A stretch of DNA of 43,808 bases, from positions 1 through 43,808 of IMG/VR virus record IMGVR_UViG_3300028843_000092; one strand, 5' to 3'. The notes below the pieces were generated by a model. The model did no database searches. It saw nothing but the letters and a program-made list of their open reading frames with translations, and was not told where the DNA came from. This document shows positions 26,968 to 43,808 of the stretch, in pieces. Made by a program: the position numbers and the translations under genes. This stretch comes from a virus (lineage: Duplodnaviria; Caudoviricetes). The first letter of the stretch is position 1. Every line of letters begins with the position of its first letter.

Positions 26968-27432
26968 TCATATCTTTTGCTCATAGCACGGGCAATCTGT
27001 GGCGATACTTGTATCCTTTAACCAAATTTCGCTACAGGGGCTCGCAGAAGCAGGCAGTTCGGCAGATAATGCCCACTCACAAGTATCACCGCTATCGCTA
27101 ACTAAGCTGTAAAATTTGCAGGATCGGCAGGTCTTTTGGTTGAGTATCTCCCTTGCCTCAGCAATTACGTTCTCAAACACATCGCTAATGTAACAGTCGA
27201 ACTCGTCAACAATAGCCTGCAACGCCTCCCGCAGTTCTGCATTAGTAGCTGTCCCGTCGTCTTGCGGTGTAGCGTTGTCAACTGCCGTTAGTATCTGATC
27301 CAGCACCGGTCCACCGATGTAAATATCACTGTCGCCCGTTGCTGTCTCTACTTCCCATGTCCCACGCGGCTTTCTTGTGACTGTCCACCCGTCCAGCCCG
27401 TGCACAATCAACCCGTTCGTTTTTGTCTTCAT
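26968..27432 (-). CDS. Hypothetical protein with C-terminal CxxC...C...C domain
   Basis: AAGGAG RBS; TGATG coupling to the RNA ligase. Confidence 0.7.
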   Translation of the reverse strand: MKTKTNGLIVHGLDGWTVTRKPRGTWEVETATGDSDIYIGGPVLDQILTAVDNATPQDDGTATNAELREALQAIVDEFDCYISDVFENVIAEAREILNQKTCRSCKFYSLVSDSGDTCEWALSAELPASASPCSEIWLKDTSIATDCPCYEQKI

Positions 27433-28379
27433 CACAATATCTCCTTCGAAAAGAACCATTCCCGCCCACGGATAGACATCGGATTACCAACATCCTTCAT
27501 CGTCAGGCCGCTCGCCTCCAGCACGTCAGATTCCTCCTTCACCACGTCCGTCGATACCCACTTGAGGAACGCGCTAAGATACTTCCGGTCTGCATCGCCG
27601 CCGCACACCTCGGCCAAGCCCTGCTGCAAGCGCTGCTCAGTCACTGCGTATTCAAGGAACTTCTGCACGCTGGCGACCTTCTCAGGGTCCACTTGCGCCA
27701 GCTTCTTGACCTTGCTGACAGAATGCTTCTCGCCCTTGACCTTGAACATGAGAAGCTGACCGTCATCGGTCAGGTGTCTCCATACGATGCCCTCTCCAAC
27801 GCCCTCGATGCCGAGCGCATGGCCGACCGGGCATTGTGCTTCTACCGCCTCGGTCAACTCGACCAGTTTGTTTTGGCTGGCTTCGGGGTGGGCGAAGTCG
27901 ATGTCTATCTCAGCTAAGCCAAAGTCCTCGGATACTCGAAATACCTCTCCGGAGTTTACGCCTGCACCTTGATATATCTCCGGCAACCAGTTCACGGTCC
28001 CGTCACCATGCCCCATAGCGGCCTCGAACAGGTAGAAGAACCTATCAACTGCGTTGACCGCAACCCTCCTCTGTATCCCGCGCCCGGCAAACTCACCGAA
28101 CAACACAACATCGCATCCGACCCTCACAAACTGTGAGAGATCCACTCCGCTGTCTCTCACCCAAGCAGCAAATCCTAGATTATCATCGTCTACCGTGATA
28201 ATCCGACTGCGTGACTGGCAATGGTACGACCCGTCAGGATGGACAACGATAGCCGCATTGGTGCCATGCACCTTTACGGTGCCGGTGAACGTCAGCTTTG
28301 CGGCTGGGTCGAAGTGCCACACGTCTTTGACGATGTTGCGGAACTGGCCGATTGATGGGAATTTGTAAAACACATTCAT
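27432..28379 (-). CDS. RNA ligase, Rnl2-like nucleotidyltransferase
   Basis: Motif I KVHGTN, FGEFAG, GEGIVW, FKVKG; start moved to ATG 28379. Confidence 0.85.
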   Translation of the reverse strand: MNVFYKFPSIGQFRNIVKDVWHFDPAAKLTFTGTVKVHGTNAAIVVHPDGSYHCQSRSRIITVDDDNLGFAAWVRDSGVDLSQFVRVGCDVVLFGEFAGRGIQRRVAVNAVDRFFYLFEAAMGHGDGTVNWLPEIYQGAGVNSGEVFRVSEDFGLAEIDIDFAHPEASQNKLVELTEAVEAQCPVGHALGIEGVGEGIVWRHLTDDGQLLMFKVKGEKHSVSKVKKLAQVDPEKVASVQKFLEYAVTEQRLQQGLAEVCGGDADRKYLSAFLKWVSTDVVKEESDVLEASGLTMKDVGNPMSIRGREWFFSKEIL

Positions 28380-28392
28380 CACAACAACTCTG

Positions 28393-28707
28393 TTAGTAGT
28401 CAACTCGCCTGTCTCTGACGACAGGCATATCCAAAAACATCTTTCCCATAGCCGTAACAGGCGTGAACTCTCGCTTCTCAACAACCCTCGGCTGCCTGCT
28501 GCCTTTGCTGGCGCTGCCGGAGCATGACCGGTTACAGTAGAGCCGCGCCCTGAATTGGGCGTTGCCCTCCTGCTTCGTCTTGCCTCGCCGCGGCCTCGGA
28601 ATCAGCTTTTTGCCGCAAGCCAAGCACGGTGGTTTTTCTGCGATCAGCCTCGCCCGGCGCGCTTCTGCTTCCAGCCTCGCCCGGCGCGCTTCTGCTTCAG
28701 TTTTCAT
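28393..28707 (-). CDS. Basic zinc-finger protein (CLACG...YCNRSC)
   Basis: GAGG RBS before ATG 28707; Arg-rich. Confidence 0.65.
   Translation of the reverse strand: MKTEAEARRARLEAEARRARLIAEKPPCLACGKKLIPRPRRGKTKQEGNAQFRARLYCNRSCSGSASKGSRQPRVVEKREFTPVTAMGKMFLDMPVVRDRRVDY
28645..28698. repeat. 27-bp perfect tandem duplication encoding EAEARRARL x2
   Basis: CAGCCTCGCCCGGCGCGCTTCTGCTTC twice. Confidence 0.92.
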
Positions 28708-29113
28708 CAACTGGCACCTCAAACGGCAGCCACGGTCCAGTCTGCCCGTCGCTGCCGATGGTGCGGCGGAGGTATTTGTACATTTCGTAAACATACCCGT
28801 ACAACGACGGGTTAACTGCACCGTCGGGTAGATCGCGCGTCTTGACCTGATGGCCATTCGCACCGTCGTTGTATGCCCAGCCTAAAGCCCCGGCTCTCGT
28901 CATAAGCCGCATATTCGGGGCGTCGTCAATGTCTTCGCAGTGGTCCCAGCAAAGCCATTGTCCGCTGTTGCCAAGCAACTCAATCCATAGATTGGCCCCA
29001 CAAGCTGCTATTGCCCCACCATCACATTCAGCAAGCACAATCCGACGCTGTTTAACGCCGTCCCTTCTGTTCCAAACCCACATCACGCGGGGTAGTGTTT
29101 TATCGCTGCTCAT
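28697..29113 (-). CDS. Hypothetical protein
   Basis: AGGAG RBS; overlaps both neighbours. Confidence 0.7.
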   Translation of the reverse strand: MSSDKTLPRVMWVWNRRDGVKQRRIVLAECDGGAIAACGANLWIELLGNSGQWLCWDHCEDIDDAPNMRLMTRAGALGWAYNDGANGHQVKTRDLPDGAVNPSLYGYVYEMYKYLRRTIGSDGQTGPWLPFEVPVDEN

Positions 29114-29439: not shown

Positions 29440-30654
29440 CTAAATATCCAGCTTATTATAGACCCGCTTAATGCGGGGCAAGAATAGGCTACTATAGGCG
29501 GCCCCCTCTGCTTTGACCACGTCATTGTAGCTTACCTCTACGGTCTTTCCGATATAATCGCCAGGTTGCCTAGCTCTGTCGAAGTCCGAAAGGCCAGAGC
29601 CCACGTTCACCGTAACCTCTTTTGTTTCTACTCTGCCGATACACTCAAGAGCCCCTATCATTCCAGCGTACTTTCCCTTACCTTCGGTGACTCCTGAGAC
29701 CACCATCATGGCATCTTTGATAGCCTTACGCTTAATCAATCTGTCAGACCGTTTCCACACATAGGGGTCGTCGGGGTAGCGAAGGATAAGCCCCTCCCAA
29801 CCGGTGGACAAAGCTGCGTCAAACATGTCAGTCACTTGATCATCGTTGTGCACGGCGGTCTGTGCAGCTATCTGAATGACTCCACCAGCCACTGCATATG
29901 CCGCGGCCAGCCTGTCGACGTATCCCATGCTGCTCTCTTGATTATCCCACGAATTCAGTGGAACCCAATCGAACACCACGTAAGAGTAGCCGTCAAAGTC
30001 ATTCAGACCTCCCTTGAGGACCTTGTTAACCCAGCCTGTGATGCGAGTCCTCCCTTCCTGATGCCCCTCACCCCAGACGAGCTCACCGTCATAGACTCCA
30101 TCAGGAGCTCCTGCGAAGCCCTCTACGAGCGATTCGAGAGGGAAGGACTTACCCGCCCTAGTCATCGCCGACGGGACCCCCTGAGAGACTCTGACGAGGA
30201 TACGGACCCCGTCATATTTGATTGAGGCGAGGAGTGGGTACCTCACATCTTTGACTTCTTTGGCCAGCATGAGAGGATAGGTCTTGATTAACCCAGGCAT
30301 TATCTTGTTCAAGGTGGTGATGTTGACACCAGCTTTGAGAGAGCCGTCCAGGATGATGCGGAACATCTCGCCATGTTCTTGTGAGGCCTCCATGGCGAAG
30401 CGCCTGGCCGTGTTACCTGAGAGACTCGACCTAGTAAGCTTTAAGGCATCAATCAAGACTTGTTGAGGGTCGGCCTGCAGTCTGAAAGTGCTGTCTTTCG
30501 GGGCCGAGACACCGTAGTTGATGCCAGTATCGTAGACCGCCGACAAGAATGCCCGCCACTCCGCATTGCCAGCATGGAGCTTCAGGATATTCTCTTTGTG
30601 TAATCTGCTGTTGGACATGCGTAGCGCATGAACAATCTTCATTATGTCAGTCAC
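29440..30654 (-). CDS. ATP-dependent DNA ligase
   Basis: KYDGVR, YDGEL, VFD, WEGLILR, VGSG, SLFLP. Confidence 0.95.
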   Translation of the reverse strand: MTDIMKIVHALRMSNSRLHKENILKLHAGNAEWRAFLSAVYDTGINYGVSAPKDSTFRLQADPQQVLIDALKLTRSSLSGNTARRFAMEASQEHGEMFRIILDGSLKAGVNITTLNKIMPGLIKTYPLMLAKEVKDVRYPLLASIKYDGVRILVRVSQGVPSAMTRAGKSFPLESLVEGFAGAPDGVYDGELVWGEGHQEGRTRITGWVNKVLKGGLNDFDGYSYVVFDWVPLNSWDNQESSMGYVDRLAAAYAVAGGVIQIAAQTAVHNDDQVTDMFDAALSTGWEGLILRYPDDPYVWKRSDRLIKRKAIKDAMMVVSGVTEGKGKYAGMIGALECIGRVETKEVTVNVGSGLSDFDRARQPGDYIGKTVEVSYNDVVKAEGAAYSSLFLPRIKRVYNKLDI

Positions 30655-32065
30655 TTTGTATTCTCCTCATTAGGTTAAGACTAGCTTTATCCCACAGGAT
30701 AGGCTGACCGTGCGCATTCAGCGATGTGTTAATGGCGATGCCATTCACTCGGCCAACAATATCAGGATTCGTGTGTTCATCCATTACTTGTAATCTGCCT
30801 GTGTATACTCCTCTCTCATTGTCGATGTGAGCTGCTCCCAACCACTCGTGCCTTGGCTCGATGTAGTCAAGTGAAGCTACCATAAAGTGTTTACATTTGC
30901 CTAGCTTACCATAATCGGCGAAGTACTTTCTAGCGAACTCCTCGGTGACGATAGGAGCCATCGGCATTACCGCTGAACGTTTGTTTAGCTTATTGATTCG
31001 AGCCACGTTCTCCAGAGTAGGTGATGCTATGGTGGAGGTATTGCCAAGAGCTCTAGGGCCAAACTCCATGGGACCGGCCATGACTTCAGACCAGTGCGCC
31101 AAGTCCTGACAGTACGTTACATCACGTGGTCCCCAGAATACGTGGTCGTACCTGACGTCAACCATGCCCAGAGCACAGCCTTGGTCACCGCTCAATGGAT
31201 TAGCCTCGAACGAATCCACCGAGTCTAAACGTATCAGAGCATTGTTCAACTTCACATTGTAGAAGACTCCACCGCTCACTTTGAGTTTGTGAGCTCCATC
31301 AGCAAATGATAGCACTGCTCTTTCAAGGAGGAACTGCACGAACTGGCTAAGCTCTACTCGGTCGCACCTCGCTCTGCTGAAGATGCGATACCAGTGTTCT
31401 CTCGCTTTTTGCAGGACAGCTCTCATATCGCATGCTTCCTTAGGTTCTCCTACCTGGTTGAGAGCTGCAATCTGCTGGTCGCTGACCCGAGTAGCCATGT
31501 CTACGTCAAACTTTCTCAGAGAGAGCTGTTCATAGCCGAGGAGTTTATACTCGTCTCGGTTCTCGTGCATGCCTAAGAACGAGGTAGCATATTGGTACAT
31601 CAAACCGAGAGACCACTCGGTGGAAAAGCTTCGATGCGACAGCTCTCCATCCTGATAGAGCGACAAGCATTCTCCATTGCTCCCGAAGCCGTCGGCTACG
31701 ATAGTCAGACCAGAGTAGGCACCGTCGCAGAAGTTCCAGACACTCATTGCATGAGCATCGTGGTGAGTCAGAGATTCGTGCAATGAGTGGATACGAGCTT
31801 CTCGAAAGTTAACCGAGAGAAACCGTAGGTCAAGGAAGATACTGTTCTTGAGCTCGAAGTCCCAGAACCAATGGCTGATATAGATGGCAGTCACTCTGGA
31901 CCTAGCCGATGGGAATAGACGCAGTAACTGATTGATAGCTAGAACTGGGAAGTGCTTATCAGACTTGACGTATGACAGTCTTTCCTCCTCGTAGCCAGCT
32001 ACAATCACCCCCTTATCAATGAGAATGGCCGAGGCATTATGCCCCAAAGTCAGCAGTAGTTTCAC
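30647..32065 (-). CDS. Carbamoyltransferase (NodU/CmcH/TobZ family)
   Basis: GHNASA, EEERL...K, HHDAHA, DGFG, SLG..Y, EYKLLG, SGGV.YNV..N, GDQG, MEFGPRALGN, NTSLN.HG.P. Confidence 0.93.
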   Translation of the reverse strand: MKLLLTLGHNASAILIDKGVIVAGYEEERLSYVKSDKHFPVLAINQLLRLFPSARSRVTAIYISHWFWDFELKNSIFLDLRFLSVNFREARIHSLHESLTHHDAHAMSVWNFCDGAYSGLTIVADGFGSNGECLSLYQDGELSHRSFSTEWSLGLMYQYATSFLGMHENRDEYKLLGYEQLSLRKFDVDMATRVSDQQIAALNQVGEPKEACDMRAVLQKAREHWYRIFSRARCDRVELSQFVQFLLERAVLSFADGAHKLKVSGGVFYNVKLNNALIRLDSVDSFEANPLSGDQGCALGMVDVRYDHVFWGPRDVTYCQDLAHWSEVMAGPMEFGPRALGNTSTIASPTLENVARINKLNKRSAVMPMAPIVTEEFARKYFADYGKLGKCKHFMVASLDYIEPRHEWLGAAHIDNERGVYTGRLQVMDEHTNPDIVGRVNGIAINTSLNAHGQPILWDKASLNLMRRIQSD

Positions 32066-32738
32066 TGAATATCTCCTTTAGGCCTTTCCAATGACGGGAG
32101 TAAAGATGCAGAGTTGAGACATTCCAGACTATCTTCCCTGGCACAACCCCAACTGCTTGTGCAATCTTGGTGAGCATATGAATCTGCCAGCTGAGGTCAG
32201 CCCCGATGAGGCCGTACCTAACATCGTTAGACCTCATGTGAACATCAGCATGTAGCACCCCGTCTCGTTGCAGGTAAGCGACAAAGCAGGTACAGATGCT
32301 ATCCTTACCTGAGGTGAAGTGCATCATGGGGTTGGTGTAGTAAGCCACGGCTCTCTTGGTGTCAGGATTGGCCGCTAGTTTCGATACGACATTGTCGTAC
32401 TGATATCCATTCTGAGGTGAGAACATTAGGAATCCATAGTTTGAATTCACCATCCCTCGGTGGTCAGCTATAATGCCCCATGTCGAAGCACTCTCGGCAA
32501 TCTTGGTGGCATTAGGATTCTGACTGTAATACCAATTCATCTCTGCTTCCACATAGCTCCTGGAAGTCTTATAGATGCCGTCAATATCGATGAACCCCAT
32601 GCCTTCGGCGGTGAACTCGCACTGAAAGAAAAGGAGCTCAACCACTCGCTTACTCCCCTCGGCCACTATCTCGCCATTCATTAACTTGGCGTGAAGTGGC
32701 CTGAGTATCTGCTCTTTAATGATTTCTTCGTTAGTCAT
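32037..32738 (-). CDS. Thymidylate synthase-fold enzyme, probable dCMP hydroxymethyltransferase
   Basis: VNSNYG, NPDTKRA, catalytic DSICT, MRSNDVRYG...D..WQ (Asp at the specificity position, as in T4 gp42), LHLY.RH; start ATG 32738. Confidence 0.88.
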   Translation of the reverse strand: MTNEEIIKEQILRPLHAKLMNGEIVAEGSKRVVELLFFQCEFTAEGMGFIDIDGIYKTSRSYVEAEMNWYYSQNPNATKIAESASTWGIIADHRGMVNSNYGFLMFSPQNGYQYDNVVSKLAANPDTKRAVAYYTNPMMHFTSGKDSICTCFVAYLQRDGVLHADVHMRSNDVRYGLIGADLSWQIHMLTKIAQAVGVVPGKIVWNVSTLHLYSRHWKGLKEIFSETTADFGA

Positions 32739-33009
32739 GAGCTTCGTCCTCGCCGCTCTGTTCCATCCACTCCTGAAGTCGGTAAGCATAGCCCTGAATG
32801 TCAACGATGTTGTCAAGCAGCGAGAAGTCACCGCAGACAGCACGACTCATCTTCTGCAATATCATGTGGAACACCTCTTTATGAATGTCAGGCATCAGGT
32901 CATAATTCGGCTGAGCCTTGAGAATCTTCTCCATCTGCTGAGTCGCTTCAGCATTACACTCCAAGGTGCCGTACACCGACCGCTGTTCAACCACTTCTTT
33001 AATATTCAT
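32731..33009 (-). CDS. Small helical protein, DUF6378-like
   Basis: R...YG, MI..K.SR...GD....DN..DI.GYA pattern. Confidence 0.7.
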   Translation of the reverse strand: MNIKEVVEQRSVYGTLECNAEATQQMEKILKAQPNYDLMPDIHKEVFHMILQKMSRAVCGDFSLLDNIVDIQGYAYRLQEWMEQSGEDEAHD

Positions 33010-34744
33010 CGGGCCATAGTCCTCTTTCTTTCAGTTCGGCATCAGTCTCGTCGACACCGGGATAAACCTGAGCTAACTTAGCTTCAGGAGGCATCGGTAG
33101 GTCAGGGATAGCTGAGTACTGTACCACATATTCCCATGCATCTACCATACATTCATTCAATCGCGGTAGCCACTTAGCAGCTTCTTCATCAGGCTGTAAT
33201 AATGTGATAGAGTCATGCACTACATTCACTATGCCTGGGCCACCGTACCTCTCATAAAGGTAATGCACTGCATACTTGGTAACCTCTGCGGCTGACCCCT
33301 GAATGGGGTAGTTGAAAGTATCGTTTATTCTAGATGCTCTCAAAGTTCTGCCTAATAAAGTCTTGGTATCTATATAACCATATACTTGCATTACTCTACG
33401 ATGCATATTGTGCCACTCTTTGAAGTAGTGATACAACTCAAACCACCGCTTGCTGATTTCTATCACCTGCTCAAGCTCCATCAGGATTCGGCCCTTCGCC
33501 TGCAATTGGTTCTGCAGTTCCACTGGCCCAGCCCCGTAGGCATTAGAGAAGGTGAACACCTTGGTGCACCACCTCTGCTGCTTGGTTAAGCCCTCTTCGG
33601 TGGTGTCGAAGATAAAGGCACCTGTATAGGTATGCATATCTACCCCTTCCTTCATCAATCTGGCCATGGTAGGCTCGCCGACATAGGCCGTTACTGTTCG
33701 GAGTTCAAGGCCAGCGTAATCACTATAGACTAGCTTGGAGCCTCGCGGTGCCTGGAACACGGGGTAGAGAGTTCTTGCAGGATTCTGTAGGTTATCATAG
33801 CCTATCCTATCTCCGCCTGAGCAAGTCATCCTAGAGGTTCGAGCCCCGCAAGAGTTATGGAAGGCTCTCATCACTGGCCTATCGTACTTCTCTATGAACT
33901 GCAAGGCCTTCTCAGCCTGTCTAGATTTAACCAGATGCTCTGCATCCGTGTTACCCTTGAGGGCCATGGTCCCGATGGTGTATGCGGCACTATCAGTTGT
34001 CCCTAGCCATTCACAACACTGCTTAGATGAGTTGATGTTGACAGGGACATGAGCCAGATTGGTCTCTAGCTTAGTCAGCATCTCTCGCCTTAGGATAGCC
34101 ACAGCCTTCTCAGACACTGGCATACCCTTCCTATCGTACTGAGTGGCGTACCTCATATTGTCGTGGTCCAACCGGCAGGGCTCGTCCATGCCATGCTTTA
34201 CCTTCTCGTAGAGTATAGCGAGATAAAGTACATCAGCGGCAGCATAATCAAGCTGCTCGGGAGATAGAGCCTTGCCCCAGTCTGACTTCTGCTGCGTCTT
34301 CTTGTCGATGCTCCTGATAAAGTCGTCTTCTGCACCGCACCACCGCAAACAATCGTAGAAGCCGAAATTGTCTCTGCAGGTATACACTGCCTTCGAGAGG
34401 TAGAAGGTATCAGAGACTTCTCTTGGATACCAATGCTCAGGGGTGTGGCAGTTGATGGTATGAAGGTCATAGCTGGCATTATGGTAGACATGATGCAGAT
34501 GCTCTACCTTAGCCAGTACATCCGCAAGATCCACGAAGTAGCAGTCCACCAGATAAGCAAACTTCTTATCAGTCTGGTAGAACTGATAGAGCCTGACCTT
34601 TCCGTACAATCCTCCCGGCTTCTTACTGAGGTCAGTGGCCCCGTAGTCTCGGCAGGTTTCAGTGTCACAAAACAGAGGCAAGTCAGGGTCAAACTGTATT
34701 GCATCCCATTCTTCTAAATCTCTAATTAGCTTATAAGGCATCAT
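32999..34744 (-). CDS. polA: DNA polymerase family A with 3'-5' exonuclease
   Basis: Exonuclease DTET, HNASYD, YAAAD; motif A DYAGLELR; motif B R...K...F...YG; IQGSAA; motif C VHDS. Confidence 0.95.
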   Translation of the reverse strand: MMPYKLIRDLEEWDAIQFDPDLPLFCDTETCRDYGATDLSKKPGGLYGKVRLYQFYQTDKKFAYLVDCYFVDLADVLAKVEHLHHVYHNASYDLHTINCHTPEHWYPREVSDTFYLSKAVYTCRDNFGFYDCLRWCGAEDDFIRSIDKKTQQKSDWGKALSPEQLDYAAADVLYLAILYEKVKHGMDEPCRLDHDNMRYATQYDRKGMPVSEKAVAILRREMLTKLETNLAHVPVNINSSKQCCEWLGTTDSAAYTIGTMALKGNTDAEHLVKSRQAEKALQFIEKYDRPVMRAFHNSCGARTSRMTCSGGDRIGYDNLQNPARTLYPVFQAPRGSKLVYSDYAGLELRTVTAYVGEPTMARLMKEGVDMHTYTGAFIFDTTEEGLTKQQRWCTKVFTFSNAYGAGPVELQNQLQAKGRILMELEQVIEISKRWFELYHYFKEWHNMHRRVMQVYGYIDTKTLLGRTLRASRINDTFNYPIQGSAAEVTKYAVHYLYERYGGPGIVNVVHDSITLLQPDEEAAKWLPRLNECMVDAWEYVVQYSAIPDLPMPPEAKLAQVYPGVDETDAELKERGLWPDEY

Positions 34745-36318
34745 AGTCGGCTATTCACCACAGTTGGGTATTTATCTGCAAAGTCTACACAGATTTGAGA
34801 GGGTTGAGCTAGAGTATCCACGACAGTATACACATCTCGTACTTTCATTGGACCTTTATAGCCCAGTTGTTTCACGATATGAGCAGCCTTTGTTCCAGGA
34901 TAGCCTTGATGTTCGAGGCACCACCAGTCTTTCACCACCTTGAGGCCACAGATATAGCTGACCTCAATGCTAGTTGGCTTACCTGCCTTGTGATGTAGTT
35001 TATACTTCACATTTCTCACGTCTAACCAGCGCTTCTTAGAAGCAGCCTTAGTCACTATGGGAGAAGAAGTGCCTGCAGTGGTCTCTATCTTGACTTCAAA
35101 CTTAAATTCAGTGCCGCATGATGGACAAGTCTTGGTAGCCGGCGGTACAAGAGTGGCACACTCAGGGCAGGTCTTCATCCTCTGCTCACCATCACCACCA
35201 CCTGACTGCTTCTCACCTGGAATACTGACATCATTCAATGGTCCGAGTCTTTCGAAGTTACCAGCATAGTCAAGGGCTAGACAGTGGCTCTTTCCAGGAT
35301 ACGGCCTTAGACCGCGACCCCACATCTGGACATGCAGCACTGGTGACTCAGTTGGCCTAAGCATTAGGATCAGGTCAATCTGTGGAACATCAAACCCGGT
35401 GGTAACCATGCCGACTGCCACCAATGCTCTGAACTCAGACTTACGAAAGCCCTTTATAATCTCGTCACGGTCACCCTCGATGTTTGAGTGCAGAACCTTG
35501 TTAGTTACCCCTAGCTTCTCTAGCTCTTCGCCGATGTGGTCTGCATGGTCAGTGTCAATTGCGAAGACTAACCATGACTTGTATCGCTTCCCGTAGACGA
35601 CGGCCTCCTTAAGGGCAGCTACCGTTACTGATTGCTTGTCATGCTTAGCGGCTAAAGCCTTCAGATTGAAATCGGCAGCGGTCTTCTTAACATCGCTAGA
35701 ATCCATTTGAACACTAGGCTTAACTGCTACCAAGGGCGATAACCACCCATCATCAATCAACTGGTTAAAGCTATCAACAGAGGTGAGGTCATGCGACAGC
35801 TTGTTAAACATGGCTGTCTCGCCTTTGTAAATATAACCGTGGCCAGCCCTAAAGACTGTGGCTGACATACCTGCCACCTTGCCGAACATCTTACTCAGGA
35901 AGGTCCTATACATTCCCTCAGCTTTGTGACTGACGGCATGAGCCTCGTCAATTACGATAAGGTTAGTAAAGGCAAACATCGTAGCTTTCTGGTAGATGCT
36001 TTGTATGCCTGCTACAGTTATCTGAGCGCGGTCCCGGAGGCCAAGGCCAGCACTATGGATGGCCACCGGTATCTCAGGTAAGAACCTAGTGATGGCATTG
36101 AAGTCTTGTTCTACTATCTCCTTCGTGTGCGATAGCACCAATACCTCATTATGAGGGTTGTCCTTCAGATACATATCAAGCATCAGACAAAGTATGATAG
36201 ACTTTCCTGAGCCTGTCGGTGCTGCGATTACTGGCGAGACCCCCTTAGTTAGTATGTCTTGGTACCACTCAGTGGCGCACTTTAACTGATACGGCCTAGA
36301 GGTTATCTTCATTGCCAC
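34741..36318 (-). CDS. SF2 DEAH helicase with zinc ribbon (RadD/YejH-like)
   Basis: PTGSGKS, DEAH, SAT, TTGFD.P, QM.GRGLR, CPEC..CPSC. Confidence 0.93.
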   Translation of the reverse strand: MAMKITSRPYQLKCATEWYQDILTKGVSPVIAAPTGSGKSIILCLMLDMYLKDNPHNEVLVLSHTKEIVEQDFNAITRFLPEIPVAIHSAGLGLRDRAQITVAGIQSIYQKATMFAFTNLIVIDEAHAVSHKAEGMYRTFLSKMFGKVAGMSATVFRAGHGYIYKGETAMFNKLSHDLTSVDSFNQLIDDGWLSPLVAVKPSVQMDSSDVKKTAADFNLKALAAKHDKQSVTVAALKEAVVYGKRYKSWLVFAIDTDHADHIGEELEKLGVTNKVLHSNIEGDRDEIIKGFRKSEFRALVAVGMVTTGFDVPQIDLILMLRPTESPVLHVQMWGRGLRPYPGKSHCLALDYAGNFERLGPLNDVSIPGEKQSGGGDGEQRMKTCPECATLVPPATKTCPSCGTEFKFEVKIETTAGTSSPIVTKAASKKRWLDVRNVKYKLHHKAGKPTSIEVSYICGLKVVKDWWCLEHQGYPGTKAAHIVKQLGYKGPMKVRDVYTVVDTLAQPSQICVDFADKYPTVVNSRL

Positions 36319-37132
36319 CTAGCTCCACCATTAATGAATGGTCTTTACAACCTTTTCGTTGGGCCTCCTCGGTCAGCCGGCGGTCGTCCAACCCACACTT
36401 CCAGCCTCCGGTAGGGGTAGGACCGCTGTGCATACAGGTGCGGCAATTGGTCATAGCGACTTTCCTACCGTGATGGCAGATATCGTTACAGCTACACCAC
36501 TTACACTCGAAGTGAGAGCGACTGAAGGCAGGGGCAGGAGGAGCTGCACTGAGTATAATCTTCTCTCCCTTCGCTGCCAGTTGTTCTGCCTTCATCTTGT
36601 CATAATAAATTCGCTCGATGTAATAGGCATCATCGTTCTTGTTGACCATGACGAATAAGGCCCTGGACAACTTGAGATGGTGCATGTAGAGCTGACACTG
36701 AGCATAGTAGACTGGCTTAGCCACCTCGCAGCGATTGTTCTGCATATCCTTGAACATCTTATCTGAAGCAGTCTTAATCTCCAGAAGATGCTCTGTATTG
36801 GGAGCCTCTACAACCCCTTTCACCTTGCCGTCGCAATGGCCCTTGACATGCCCCCAAGCAGCTTCTACTTCTTCCTGAGCATCGTTGACCACCATGCCAA
36901 TCCGTTCTAGGTCAGCGATAACCGAAGGTTCTTCACGGTGACCACGGTCGAACAGACGACGAAGGCGACGACTGTGAGTCTCCGAGTAGCACCACCTGAA
37001 AGAGTACCACAGATAGCGACTACAGGGATGGCCGAGTATTGACATGCCAAGATAAGGTCTTAGGTCCTCTGTGACAGGTTCAGCCTCCAGGGCTGAAGCT
37101 GTGGTATTACCGAATTCTGTGAGTTTGACCAT
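36296..37132 (-). CDS. Cas4-like PD-(D/E)xK exonuclease
   Basis: C.R.LWY, GH.DG, LEIKT, YY.Q.Q.Y, CKWC...IC, CRTC. Confidence 0.88.
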   Translation of the reverse strand: MVKLTEFGNTTASALEAEPVTEDLRPYLGMSILGHPCSRYLWYSFRWCYSETHSRRLRRLFDRGHREEPSVIADLERIGMVVNDAQEEVEAAWGHVKGHCDGKVKGVVEAPNTEHLLEIKTASDKMFKDMQNNRCEVAKPVYYAQCQLYMHHLKLSRALFVMVNKNDDAYYIERIYYDKMKAEQLAAKGEKIILSAAPPAPAFSRSHFECKWCSCNDICHHGRKVAMTNCRTCMHSGPTPTGGWKCGLDDRRLTEEAQRKGCKDHSLMVELGGNEDNL

Positions 37133-37167
37133 TCTACTTTCTCGTTTAGCTGACAGTTGCAGAGTTA

Positions 37168-37190
37168 GTGCCTGTCTTTCCAGACTGTCA
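37168..37190 (-). promoter_or_regulatory. Repeated hairpin element, copy A: TGACAGTCTGGAAAGACAGGCAC
   Basis: Intergenic; matches copy B with compensatory stem changes. Confidence 0.65.
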
Positions 37191-37291
37191 GGGGCTACCT
37201 ATCCTGCCCCTTGATGATAGTGGGGATGCTCGATGCGTTCCGAGTAGCCTACCTCGAAATGCCCCGGCTCCCTAGTCTTTCAGGCAGCATC

Positions 37292-37744
37292 CTACACCCA
37301 GGGTTTGATCACTTCCTCAGCAGCCTCCTCCTCCTCGGCCACCTCGCCGTCATAGGGGTAATAGCCGCTGATCTCATTACTCGGTGGATACTGAGCATTG
37401 CCGGGGGAGATAGTCACGGCCAGTTCCATCGGGATACCGTGAAGCTCCTCGCTGTCTTCGACATCGGTAACCCCGAAGCCGCAAGCCACCTTGATAGAGT
37501 TAAGTTGCTTGTTGGCAATCTCGACAGCCACCGGATTAGGGTTGTCCAGATTCAGGTTGGTGAACACGAGGCGACCCTTCTTCGGTCCCTCCGCGACCTT
37601 GAACCGGAGCGACAGATAGTGACCGGTATTGGCCTTGGTCTTCTTCATTTCGCTCTTAACGATAGTGGCGACATAACGACCAGGCTCCAGAGGAGTACGG
37701 TCATCATCGGTTTCAGTGGTGGTCGGTGTTGGCAAAATAGCCAT
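37292..37744 (-). CDS. DUF669-like single-stranded DNA-binding protein
   Basis: P.G.Y.A.I, YL.L.F....G...GR, NEI..Y, acidic tail ending PWV. Confidence 0.82.
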   Translation of the reverse strand: MAILPTPTTTETDDDRTPLEPGRYVATIVKSEMKKTKANTGHYLSLRFKVAEGPKKGRLVFTNLNLDNPNPVAVEIANKQLNSIKVACGFGVTDVEDSEELHGIPMELAVTISPGNAQYPPSNEISGYYPYDGEVAEEEEAAEEVIKPWV

Positions 37745-37798
37745 AGTGTTTTACTCTCAGTTAAGTTGACGGACTATCCGATCCCTGTGAGGGTAGTC

Positions 37799-38494
37799 TT
37801 AAGCGGCCTTGCTTAAGAGTTTTTCAAAGATGTACGACAGATCTGGTTTCTCTTGCATGGTCAAGGCTGAGTTGCTTGACTTGGCAATCCACCCTCGCTC
37901 GGCACTGGTCTGCAGGTATCGGTAGAAACCTTTGGCCTTGGTACCGCCTTGCCGCATTGCGAAGACTGAGTCCATTTCGTAGGGCGCCGAGTTGCCTAGC
38001 ACTCGACCTGGAAAGCTCGGTTCGTATGAAATAGAACCAGTAGACTCATCCTCAGTTCGCTTGAGTCGAGCGATTGAGTAGAAGTGCTTGGGAACGTGAA
38101 TCATAGTCTTGAGCAGAGCCGCCATGTCGGCTGCCATGTTACCGTAGGCCTTTCTCGGGTCTATACTACCAGAGCGGCTATTCTCAGTCAGCACCTTTAG
38201 GTGGTCATTGAGCAGAGTCTCGGCCAAGTCAGTCAGGGAGTCGACACAGACAGTGGCATACTGATTGGCTTCTTTCGACGAGGTGACCCATACAAGCACC
38301 TCCTCAACATCGGCCCGAGTCTTGCAGAAGAATACTGGCAGGGCCTTGTCTCGCAGAGCCAGCAGTCGTTTCTCACTACTGATAATGATGGGGTCTGGTG
38401 CAGTCCCTATCAAGGTGGTCTTGCCTATCCCGCTCTCCCCATAAACCATGAGGTTCACATGGTGTGAGATAGTCGAAGTGTTCTGTGGTTTCAT
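37799..38494 (-). CDS. AAA_24/Sak4-like ATPase (recombinase)
   Basis: YGESGIGKTT, VDSLT; synteny with SSB and nuclease. Confidence 0.88.
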   Translation of the reverse strand: MKPQNTSTISHHVNLMVYGESGIGKTTLIGTAPDPIIISSEKRLLALRDKALPVFFCKTRADVEEVLVWVTSSKEANQYATVCVDSLTDLAETLLNDHLKVLTENSRSGSIDPRKAYGNMAADMAALLKTMIHVPKHFYSIARLKRTEDESTGSISYEPSFPGRVLGNSAPYEMDSVFAMRQGGTKAKGFYRYLQTSAERGWIAKSSNSALTMQEKPDLSYIFEKLLSKAA

Positions 38495-39593: not shown

Positions 39594-40250
39594 CTAAGCG
39601 GCGAACAGCTCCAGACCACCTTCGCGCAGCTCAGGGTCAGCCGGCACAGGCTGGGCAGCCATCTCGGTGGACAGCTCCATGATAGAGATCCCGAGAACAG
39701 CGGCCTTGGCCAGCAAGAAGCTGGAGTTGATGGTGTACAAGGTATTGGAATACCGAGCCTTGCCACCGATAACCGGATAGAGCACATTGAAGGCCTCGGT
39801 GCGAGTGGCATTGGGGTTCTCTTTCAGCAAGGCTAGAACCGCGTTGTGAACCTTAGAGCCGCTGGTTGCACGGGCTCCGCCGGAGCTCTTCGGCTTGGTC
39901 GGCAGAGCGATCTCCTCGTTCTTGCAATATGCCCGAGCCTTGCTGATGACGTTGGCTTGCGTGGCACCATCGACCTCTGCCACGATACGGCCAGCAGCTT
40001 CTACCAGGTCGCCCCATTCATTGATGCTGGTCCAATCAGCCTGTTCCACAGCGCCCTGGATACCTTTGGAGACCACCTTGGGGTCTACCATGAGGCCAGA
40101 GTCAATGCTGAGCTCTTTGAAGGAGCTGTTCAAGTCGCTGAAAGGAACGCCGGCCGTGAACATGGCCATCTTGATGTTGTCTTCGCTCTCCTCGTTGGCG
40201 TAGCCCTCTTCTATGATGCCTTGAATCTTCAGTTTGAGTTCTTCATTCAT
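39594..40250 (-). CDS. Hypothetical protein, probable paralog of 1722-2045
   Basis: First gene after a promoter; GGAG RBS; ATG at 40248 is the likely start. Confidence 0.8.
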   Translation of the reverse strand: MNEELKLKIQGIIEEGYANEESEDNIKMAMFTAGVPFSDLNSSFKELSIDSGLMVDPKVVSKGIQGAVEQADWTSINEWGDLVEAAGRIVAEVDGATQANVISKARAYCKNEEIALPTKPKSSGGARATSGSKVHNAVLALLKENPNATRTEAFNVLYPVIGGKARYSNTLYTINSSFLLAKAAVLGISIMELSTEMAAQPVPADPELREGGLELFAA

Positions 40251-43709: not shown

Positions 43710-43808
43710 GTCTTTCTGCTTGTCTTTCTGCTTGTCTTTCTGCTTGTCTTTCTGCTTGTCTTTCTGCTTGTCTTCGAGTAGCCAGGCAGGTTGAGAGGCA
43801 GGAAAAGG
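43710..43808. repeat. Terminal direct repeat, identical to 1-99
   Basis: Exact match. Confidence 0.93.

Follow-up and report, generated by a model that had tools for sequence, protein, structure and literature searches.

Predicted two-gene route to 5-carbamoyloxymethylcytosine in the replication arm of a small PolA-bearing podophage

Predicted synthesis of a carbamoylated cytosine

We examined a 43,808-nucleotide (nt) stretch of viral DNA (Caudoviricetes; IMG/VR record IMGVR_UViG_3300028843_000092, positions 1 to 43,808; hereafter the window), focusing on a minus-strand gene pair encoding an enzyme of the thymidylate synthase fold (TS) and a carbamoyltransferase (CT). Sequence comparisons indicate that this phage very probably makes 5-hydroxymethyl-dCMP (5hm-dCMP) and then carbamoylates the hydroxymethyl group, such that part or all of its cytosine would be 5-carbamoyloxymethylcytosine (5cmC). 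The base and the enzyme chemistry have already been published; what is new here is the short-enzyme subclade and the minimal, kinase-less layout. A first-pass annotation had described four overlapping genes followed by a DNA ligase, and all four minus-strand open reading frames (ORFs) were recovered across 30647-34744 with the ligase next in line, within the following arrangement (aa, amino acids):

34741..38494, minus strand: upstream replication backbone (Sak4-like ATPase, DUF669 single-stranded DNA-binding protein (SSB), Cas4-like nuclease, superfamily 2 (SF2) helicase)
32999..34744, minus strand: family A DNA polymerase PolA with 3'-5' exonuclease, 581 aa (Pfam PF00476/PF01612; DNA_pol_A E 4e-29)
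32731..33009, minus strand: DUF6378-family four-helix protein, 92 aa (weak Pfam match, ESM Atlas, homologues, AlphaFold2 (AF2) model)
32037..32738, minus strand: probable T4 gp42-type dCMP hydroxymethylase (TS), 233 aa (PDB match 1b49, alignment, tree)
30647..32065, minus strand: NodU/CmcH-type O-carbamoyltransferase (CT), 472 aa (Carbam_trans_N and Carbam_trans_C, both above cut-off)
29440..30654, minus strand: ATP-dependent DNA ligase, 404 aa, bounding the variable slot (Pfam PF01068/PF14743)

Neighbouring genes overlap by 11 nt (PolA/DUF6378), 8 nt (DUF6378/TS), 29 nt (TS/CT) and 8 nt (CT/ligase), and the coupled chain exceeds four genes because the helicase also overlaps PolA (4 nt). For TS, the likeliest start codon is ATG 32738, which was favoured over GTG 32843 by an upstream GAGG, the 8-nt overlap and agreement with the starts of relatives.

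The chemistry would proceed in five steps. By comparison with T4 gp42, and with the required residues present, TS would convert dCMP, methylene-tetrahydrofolate and water to 5hm-dCMP. Phosphorylation to 5hm-dCTP would fall to host kinases, no phage kinase having been found. Removal of dCTP would be the third step, for which no known dCTPase was found and the DUF6378 protein is a candidate. CT would then use ATP and carbamoyl phosphate to form carbamoyl-AMP and transfer the carbamoyl group to 5-hydroxymethylcytosine (5hmC), either on the nucleotide or in single-stranded DNA at the fork; its residues are present, and the activity is expected from the enzyme of Yang et al. Finally, PolA would incorporate the modified dCTP and the ligase would join the product.

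That the chemistry was probably known, as the first-pass annotation had supposed, is borne out by the available excerpts of Yang et al. (2021; eLife, PMC8670742), in which a CT from a TS-bearing contig turned 5-hydroxymethyldeoxycytidine (5hmdC) into 5-carbamoyloxymethyldeoxycytidine (5cmdC). The validated CT acted on 5hmdC in single-stranded DNA, on 5hmdCTP and on RNA, but not on 5-methyl-dCTP (5mdCTP) or 5-hydroxymethyl-dUTP (5hmdUTP), and the pairing of CT with TS was confined to contigs that had been selected for modified cytosine (PMC8670742). In those excerpts, 5cmdC was shown in vitro with the metagenomic enzyme, and its presence in phage DNA was inferred rather than measured.

The TS-fold enzyme groups with T4 gp42

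The top solved match of TS was T4 dCMP hydroxymethylase (1b49, E 9e-31), with MilA and ThyA at E 7e-10 or weaker. A search of 50%-representative proteins returned 2,520 matches (best 52%), and a viral-contig scan using TS alone gave no match. All three motifs quoted in the first-pass annotation (MRSNDVRYGLIGADLSWQ, NSNYG and D..CT) were found in the TS translation. The published hydroxymethylase signature combines an Asp three residues before the catalytic Cys with Ser-x-Tyr, and Asp179 for cytosine (Park et al. 2019, PMC6400193, available portions). In a 118-row alignment, with locus TS sequences numbered against T4 gp42, TS residues E66, S99, Y101, D146 and C149 aligned with T4 E60, S94, Y96, D145 and C148, and D172, D181, H211 and Y213 with T4 D171, D179, H216 and Y218, while R169-S170 is the equivalent of the T4 catalytic Arg168-Ser169. 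The dCMP-specificity Asp at the ThyA Asn177 position is thus present as D181; compared with T4, its distance from MRS.D is greater by one residue (a 1-residue insertion common to all close relatives), and it aligns with T4 Asp179. Asp occupied position 179 in 113 of 113 distinct TS sequences from CT loci. The proposed contrast with dUMP enzymes also held, in that Asn179 was read in Bp7 ThyA and in two references that we take, partly from annotation, to be of the dUMP hydroxymethylase type.

Other published signatures point away from related activities. According to the available text of PMC13326640, 5-hydroxy-dCMP (5hodCMP) synthases have Asn at ThyA position 169; RB69 gp48 has Asn171 there and TS has D172. 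Likewise, TS has Asp both where methylating enzymes have Leu (ThyA 143) and where dUMP enzymes have Asn177. A tree with gp42, dUMP hydroxymethylases and ThyA had been proposed as a check, and in a 29-row tree (23 of the 113 locus TS sequences, hand-picked, plus references) TS belonged to a clade of eight rows (100/98), which joined the group containing T4 gp42 (99/98), with RB69 gp48 and ThyA on long branches of unsure placement. The residues, the 1b49 match and the gp42 grouping agreed in every sequence test run, and TS is likely a dCMP hydroxymethylase of the T4 gp42 type, with the activity expected from its T4 counterpart.

The carbamoyltransferase shares unusual substitutions with a validated enzyme

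In a HMMER alignment with GdmN, CT H9 corresponds to the general base H27, and H101, H105, D125 and D294 to the iron ligands H133, H137, D156 and D333 (roles as given in the available text of PMC9633730). A 45-sequence alignment of close CT relatives showed H9, H101, H105, D125, D294 and N446-T-S to be invariant. Two changes in CT are unusual, namely Thr for Arg after GPRAL-x-x (the GPRALGxR motif) and Asn for Lys in the next KxR motif. Both also occur in the validated enzyme as printed in PMC8670742 (comparison by eye), and among 216 distinct full-length CT relatives Thr was found in 169/174 and Asn in 180/184 sequences fitting the respective pattern. By eye, CT and the printed enzyme have further motifs in common, spread over their whole length: LLLTLGHNASAI, SLGLMYQYATSFLG, EYKLLGY, GDQG, MEFGPRAL-xNT, YTGRxQV and INTSxNxHGxPI (PMC8670742). 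By our own count, TobZ W408, G421 and R423 correspond to V328, G341 and T343 in CT and to I, C and T in the printed enzyme, so that two of the three changed in the same direction; the Gly at the TobZ G421 position is unchanged in CT, as in 69/174 relatives. No protein searched carried a motif unique to the validated enzyme.

In a quick 34-row CT tree, CT fell in a 9-row short clade (SH-aLRT 99), itself part of a phage clade of 30 rows, most of them TS-linked (SH-aLRT 99); the validated enzyme of Yang et al. was not among the rows and was compared by eye. The role in 5hmC modification proposed in the first-pass annotation fits both Pfam domains, the catalytic His, the iron ligands and the common unusual substitutions, and CT likely carbamoylates 5hmC, as judged from the Yang et al. 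enzyme.

Pairing of TS and CT across loci and in cultured phages

CT loci were dereplicated at 90% to 93 clusters, of which 71 remained once 22 with flanks below 3 kb were dropped. TS lay within 7 kb in 67 of the 71, and wherever the flank was seen the short-clade CT was translationally coupled to TS. The compact arrangement, suspected earlier to be possibly unseen, proved to recur: the order PolA-X-TS-CT was found with DUF5664 as X in L061 (and in L005-L007, L060 and L068, which have an extra exonuclease or GNAT gene) and with MazG as X in L066, L067 and L088.

Several features of these loci stand apart from the pairing itself. The closest relatives, though not this phage, carry a 107-110 aa GNAT acetyltransferase gene between the dCMP hydroxymethylase and CT genes and overlapping both (L005:8258-8581, L006:9681-10004, L007:9672-10004, L068:5051-5374); its product might transfer an acyl group, taking the base a step past 5cmC. 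In Bacteroides-type loci (L003:11456-12262, L013, L020, L025, L035 and others), the P-loop kinase gene directly after CT is followed by another TS-fold gene, whose product has no Glu60 and in many cases has Asn in place of Asp171. The sole match among 185,579 species genomes was L170 (= L059), a 4-kb TS-CT-MazG-ligase contig in an Epsilonproteobacteria-titled metagenome-assembled genome; together with strong CATG and GATC avoidance in L005/L006, it suggests that the donor clade may infect Campylobacterota, unless it is a mis-binned phage contig.

Tblastn with CT gave matches in 85 annotated phage records, and in 12 of these the identity was 31-36% over 96-98% of the query; the 12 include Xp15, four Acinetobacter and six Bacteroides records. 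A TS gene of the Asp179 type was nearby in all four cultured-phage records inspected. Our literature searches, which did not extend to subscription journals and patents, found no report on the DNA bases of cultured phages with CT and TS, and nothing on the short subclade or on 5cmdC measured in virions since 2021. Two Xp15 annotations are of separate interest: gp37, listed as a 'putative DNA polymerase subunit', shows the motifs of a P-loop nucleotide kinase (L001; also L002 and L004), and gp33, a 'DNA polymerase', is a DUF6378 protein.

A module in the slot between PolA and ligase

We compared the locus with six distinct backbone relatives (L264; L263/265/266/271/272; L267/268; L269; L270; L273), which have Sak4, SSB, Cas4, helicase, PolA (43-51%) and ligase (37-47%) in common with this phage where covered. 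TS-CT was present in none of the six. Instead, the PolA-ligase slot held NDT-HD-DUF6378-(MazG)-ThyX-(deaminase) in five and was empty in L270. Conversely, TS and CT were 43-53% identical to those of L005-L007 and L059-L061, where PolA (26-31%) and ligase (25-27%) are more distant. TS-CT therefore probably entered the slot as a two-gene module from another phage group, replacing the NDT-HD-ThyX-deaminase block beside a resident DUF6378 gene; the direction of this swap is read from the identities rather than from a rooted test. Thus, the TS and CT part of the four-gene cassette proposed in the first-pass annotation stands, and PolA and DUF6378 belong to a replication backbone found in relatives without TS-CT. 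The GC content (0.48-0.50) and GC3 (0.55-0.57) of TS and CT matched those of their neighbours, giving no compositional sign of recent transfer.

The conserved slot block of the relatives (NDT, HD hydrolase, DUF6378, (MazG), a long ThyX-like protein of about 300 aa, deaminase; L263:1464-4093, L264:5299-8241, L267-L269 and L273) is possibly another base-modification route. Separately, ThyA-like genes after PolA in L274-L278, L281 and L282 all (7/7) encode PCCH with QRS.D..IG.PSD and Asp at ThyA Asn177. Together with the Leu three before Cys, seen in all five of the seven that are covered at that position, this is the signature of dCMP methylases (5-methylcytosine); the genes adjoin DUF6378 or DUF5664, usually with a dCMP deaminase as well.

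Possible incomplete substitution and GATC avoidance

Several observations weigh against the predicted 5cmC route. GATC is depleted genome-wide (76 seen versus 185 expected; observed/expected (O/E) 0.41). The T4 Arg123 position holds Lys in TS (Lys128), the sole replaced catalytic residue in the alignment, and CT falls 60-110 aa short of the validated type (about 550 aa). Moreover, genome-wide scans with Pfam, PHROG and local profiles detected neither a P-loop kinase nor MazG/PRA-PH, a dCMP deaminase or ThyX; with the local profiles (MazG, PRA-PH, deaminase, both kinase groups, ThyX, GNAT, DUF5664) there was no match below E 0.2 anywhere in the genome, although these profiles are narrow and about 20 ORFs carry no assignment.

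As no kinase or dCTPase was found, cytosine substitution may be incomplete, with 5cmC scattered among normal cytosines and restriction blunted rather than abolished. We consider this a serious possibility, if clearly the less probable one, and it is compatible with the chemistry of the best explanation. A P-loop kinase gene lay within 7 kb in 64 of 67 long-type CT loci but in none of four short-type loci (kinase identity of the Xp15 gp37-like proteins being read from GxDxSGK and DR motifs), and none was detected in this complete genome. GATC avoidance also persists in phages bearing the gene pair, at O/E 0.00-0.15 in L005-L007 versus 0.66-0.98 in cassette-free relatives (15-20 kb stretches), and the module itself has 0 GATC sites against 8.3 expected, weakly below the genome-wide depletion. 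Some GATC-directed pressure may thus remain in cassette-bearing phages, and protection may be partial. Such depletion may reflect incomplete substitution, but GATC can also be avoided for other reasons, among them cutters that C5 groups do not hinder and nicking during mismatch repair. Palindromes overall gave an O/E of 0.85 against 0.88-1.02 in cassette-free relatives, a weak test that did not separate the cassette-bearing phages. Furthermore, the DUF6378 protein or an unassigned ORF may fill the kinase/dCTPase gap. By analogy with T4 and the discussion in the available text of Yang et al. (PMC8670742), the modified base would probably act as a shield against host nucleases; the protection from restriction or CRISPR suggested in the first-pass annotation is likewise a putative role.

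Candidate roles of the DUF6378 protein

The DUF6378-like label of the first-pass annotation is weak by Pfam (PF19905, E 0.009, below cut-off) but was upheld by the ESM Atlas (0.93, TM 0.89) and by phage homologues, six of six of which match PF19905; the homologue profile returned mostly PF19905 proteins. The family has at least 4,920 homologues, although a single-sequence search with the 92-aa ORF returned only itself. An AF2 model has four helices (pLDDT 92.5), and its fold search gave nothing above Z 6.8 among 48,161 chains, with no MazG chain in the top 50. A single-sequence AF2 model was poor (pLDDT 61) and its fold search uninformative. Invariant columns are R10, Y13, G14, M49, K53, R56, G60, D70, G73 and Y74, and the MazG ExxE...ExxD motif is not among them. 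Profile comparisons of DUF6378 with DUF5664 (probability 0.2%) and of DUF5664 with T7 gp1.7 were negative.

DUF6378 is no marker of base modification, because most loci have no marker families nearby: 65 of 80 IMG/VR loci lacked any of nine such families within 3 kb, and TS lay within 3 kb in only 8 of 80. In backbone relatives it stands next to a thymidylate-synthase-type gene, whereas other phages lack such a neighbour, and a Faecalibacterium phage has it after ThyX (PMC13432834, in the available text). The passages of literature that name the family give it no function. In relatives, the gene slot before TS holds DUF5664 (L005-L007, L060, L061, L068) or MazG (L066, L067, L088). According to the available text of Poubanne et al. 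(2026, PMC12884076), which is silent on DUF6378, a DUF5664 (PF18909) protein hydrolyses dATP, dUTP and dGTP to dNMP. By gene position, the DUF6378 protein may therefore be a dCTPase/dUTPase pyrophosphohydrolase, a candidacy that we put a little short of an even chance.

It is rather unlikely that the DUF6378 protein is instead the missing hm-dCMP kinase, of a non-P-loop kind. Kinase genes accompany 62 of 67 TS-linked loci, and DUF5664 or DUF6378 lies directly before TS in 5 of 5 TS-linked loci without a P-loop kinase versus 4 of 62 with one (Fisher p 1.3e-5, though only 2-3 independent events are involved). DUF5664 is also present together with MazG/PRA-PH in L005-L007 and L061. It takes the kinase position in L166 and L132, and in the Z-base Vibrio phage K300 a DUF6378 homologue (L179:2923-3258) ends a cluster of PurZ, DatZ and an unassigned gene. 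However, we rate the kinase role lower because the DUF5664 protein is a pyrophosphohydrolase (PMC12884076, as above); MazG fills the same slot in three loci, and hhalign found no resemblance of the DUF6378 profile to the one T7 gp1.7 sequence compared (probability 1%).

The most far-reaching version of the proposal, a portable two-gene 5cmC module with DUF6378 as its sole helper (a new dNTP pyrophosphohydrolase class, or a kinase) clearing dCTP, is less likely than not. If true, it would be the most compact complete cytosine-hypermodification system known, able to move between unrelated small phages. A route reduced to TS, CT and one DUF6378 gene would provide a sharp test for a large family and might serve as a small toolkit for writing 5cmC into DNA; 5cmdC could be sought directly in the DNA of Effie, Xp15 and BF503P1, cultured phages that carry both genes.

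Less probable readings of the two enzymes

We think it very unlikely that 5hmC is made but left without the carbamoyl group, the shortened CT being weak or acting elsewhere. In favour of this reading, the 472-aa CT has four deletions relative to Xp15 (13, 14, 6 and 20 residues) and a long end branch (0.85). It also has Asn at what we take to be the position of the TobZ shuttle lysine. The validated enzyme likewise has Asn there (PMC8670742, printed sequence), and the short form is a conserved clade, with invariant catalytic residues and TS coupling as described above. The last alternative, that the TS-fold enzyme is a dCMP methylase, dCMP hydroxylase or thymidylate synthase and that TS and CT are unrelated neighbours, is highly improbable: Pfam, PHROG and NCBIfam label TS only as 'thymidylate synthase', yet Asp rather than Leu three before Cys, together with Asp179 and Asp171, excludes the published ThyA, methylase and 5hodCMP synthase signatures, and most CT loci are TS-linked.

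Genome context

The window is a circularly complete 43.7-kb assembly, with bases 1-99 recurring exactly at 43710-43808 (99-nt terminal overlap). The plus strand encodes terminase, a podovirus-type portal, protease, capsid, two tail-tube proteins, internal virion proteins and endolysin, and the minus strand the replication arm (PHROG and Pfam scans). Among annotated phages, the top portal matches were only 29-32% identical (Limnohabitans DC33, phiV10, BPP-1), and by sequence this is a podophage without a close named relative. Where the assembly ends join (1-61 and 43710-43770), upstream of primase, lies a tandem repeat of 12 nt (GTCTTTCTGCTT), possibly an origin; a short 13-23 nt spaced repeat is present at 210-266. 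An Rnl2-family RNA ligase gene (27432-28484) closes the replication arm, RNA_ligase being likewise enriched on the modified contigs of Yang et al. 2021 (PMC8670742, available text). The ORF at 28393-28863 has a 27-nt in-frame duplication (28636-28689), and the unassigned 218-aa ORF at 39594-40250 had no Atlas match above 0.79. The sequencing runs listed for the phage (four DNA rows, one study) include no RNA.

Comparison with known systems

With the T4 gp42 pathway (PDB 1b49, 6a9a), the predicted route shares the catalytic and specificity residues, Arg123 excepted, and a common tree group; unlike T4, the phage has no glucosyltransferase, gp1 kinase or gp56 dCTPase, and TS has the one-residue insertion before Asp179 and Lys for Arg123. 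GdmN, TobZ and NovN resemble CT in their Kae1-like and YrdC-like domains, catalytic His and iron ligands, but act on antibiotic substrates and retain Arg and Lys at the positions that are Thr and Asn in the phage clade. DUF5664 is, like the DUF6378 protein, a small helical phage protein in the slot before TS, and differs in lacking any profile likeness to it.

Among cultured phages, Xanthomonas phage Xp15, Acinetobacter phages Effie, HHU4 and MD-2021a, and Bacteroides phage BF503P1 and its kin carry the CT and TS pair as here, and Xp15 also has a DUF6378 gene. Their genomes are larger: in Xp15 and the Acinetobacter phages a long-type CT is followed by PRA-PH, P-loop kinase, TS and deaminase, and in the Bacteroides phages by a kinase and two TS genes. 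A close parallel is the route of Yang et al. (PMC8670742, available text), in which a TS with the Asp177-equivalent stands beside a NodU-type CT, as here, and PolA and ligase, together with RNA ligase, are enriched on the modified contigs. This phage differs from that route in having no detected PRA-PH/MazG, dCMP deaminase or P-loop kinase, and in placing a TS of gp42-proximal type upstream of CT.

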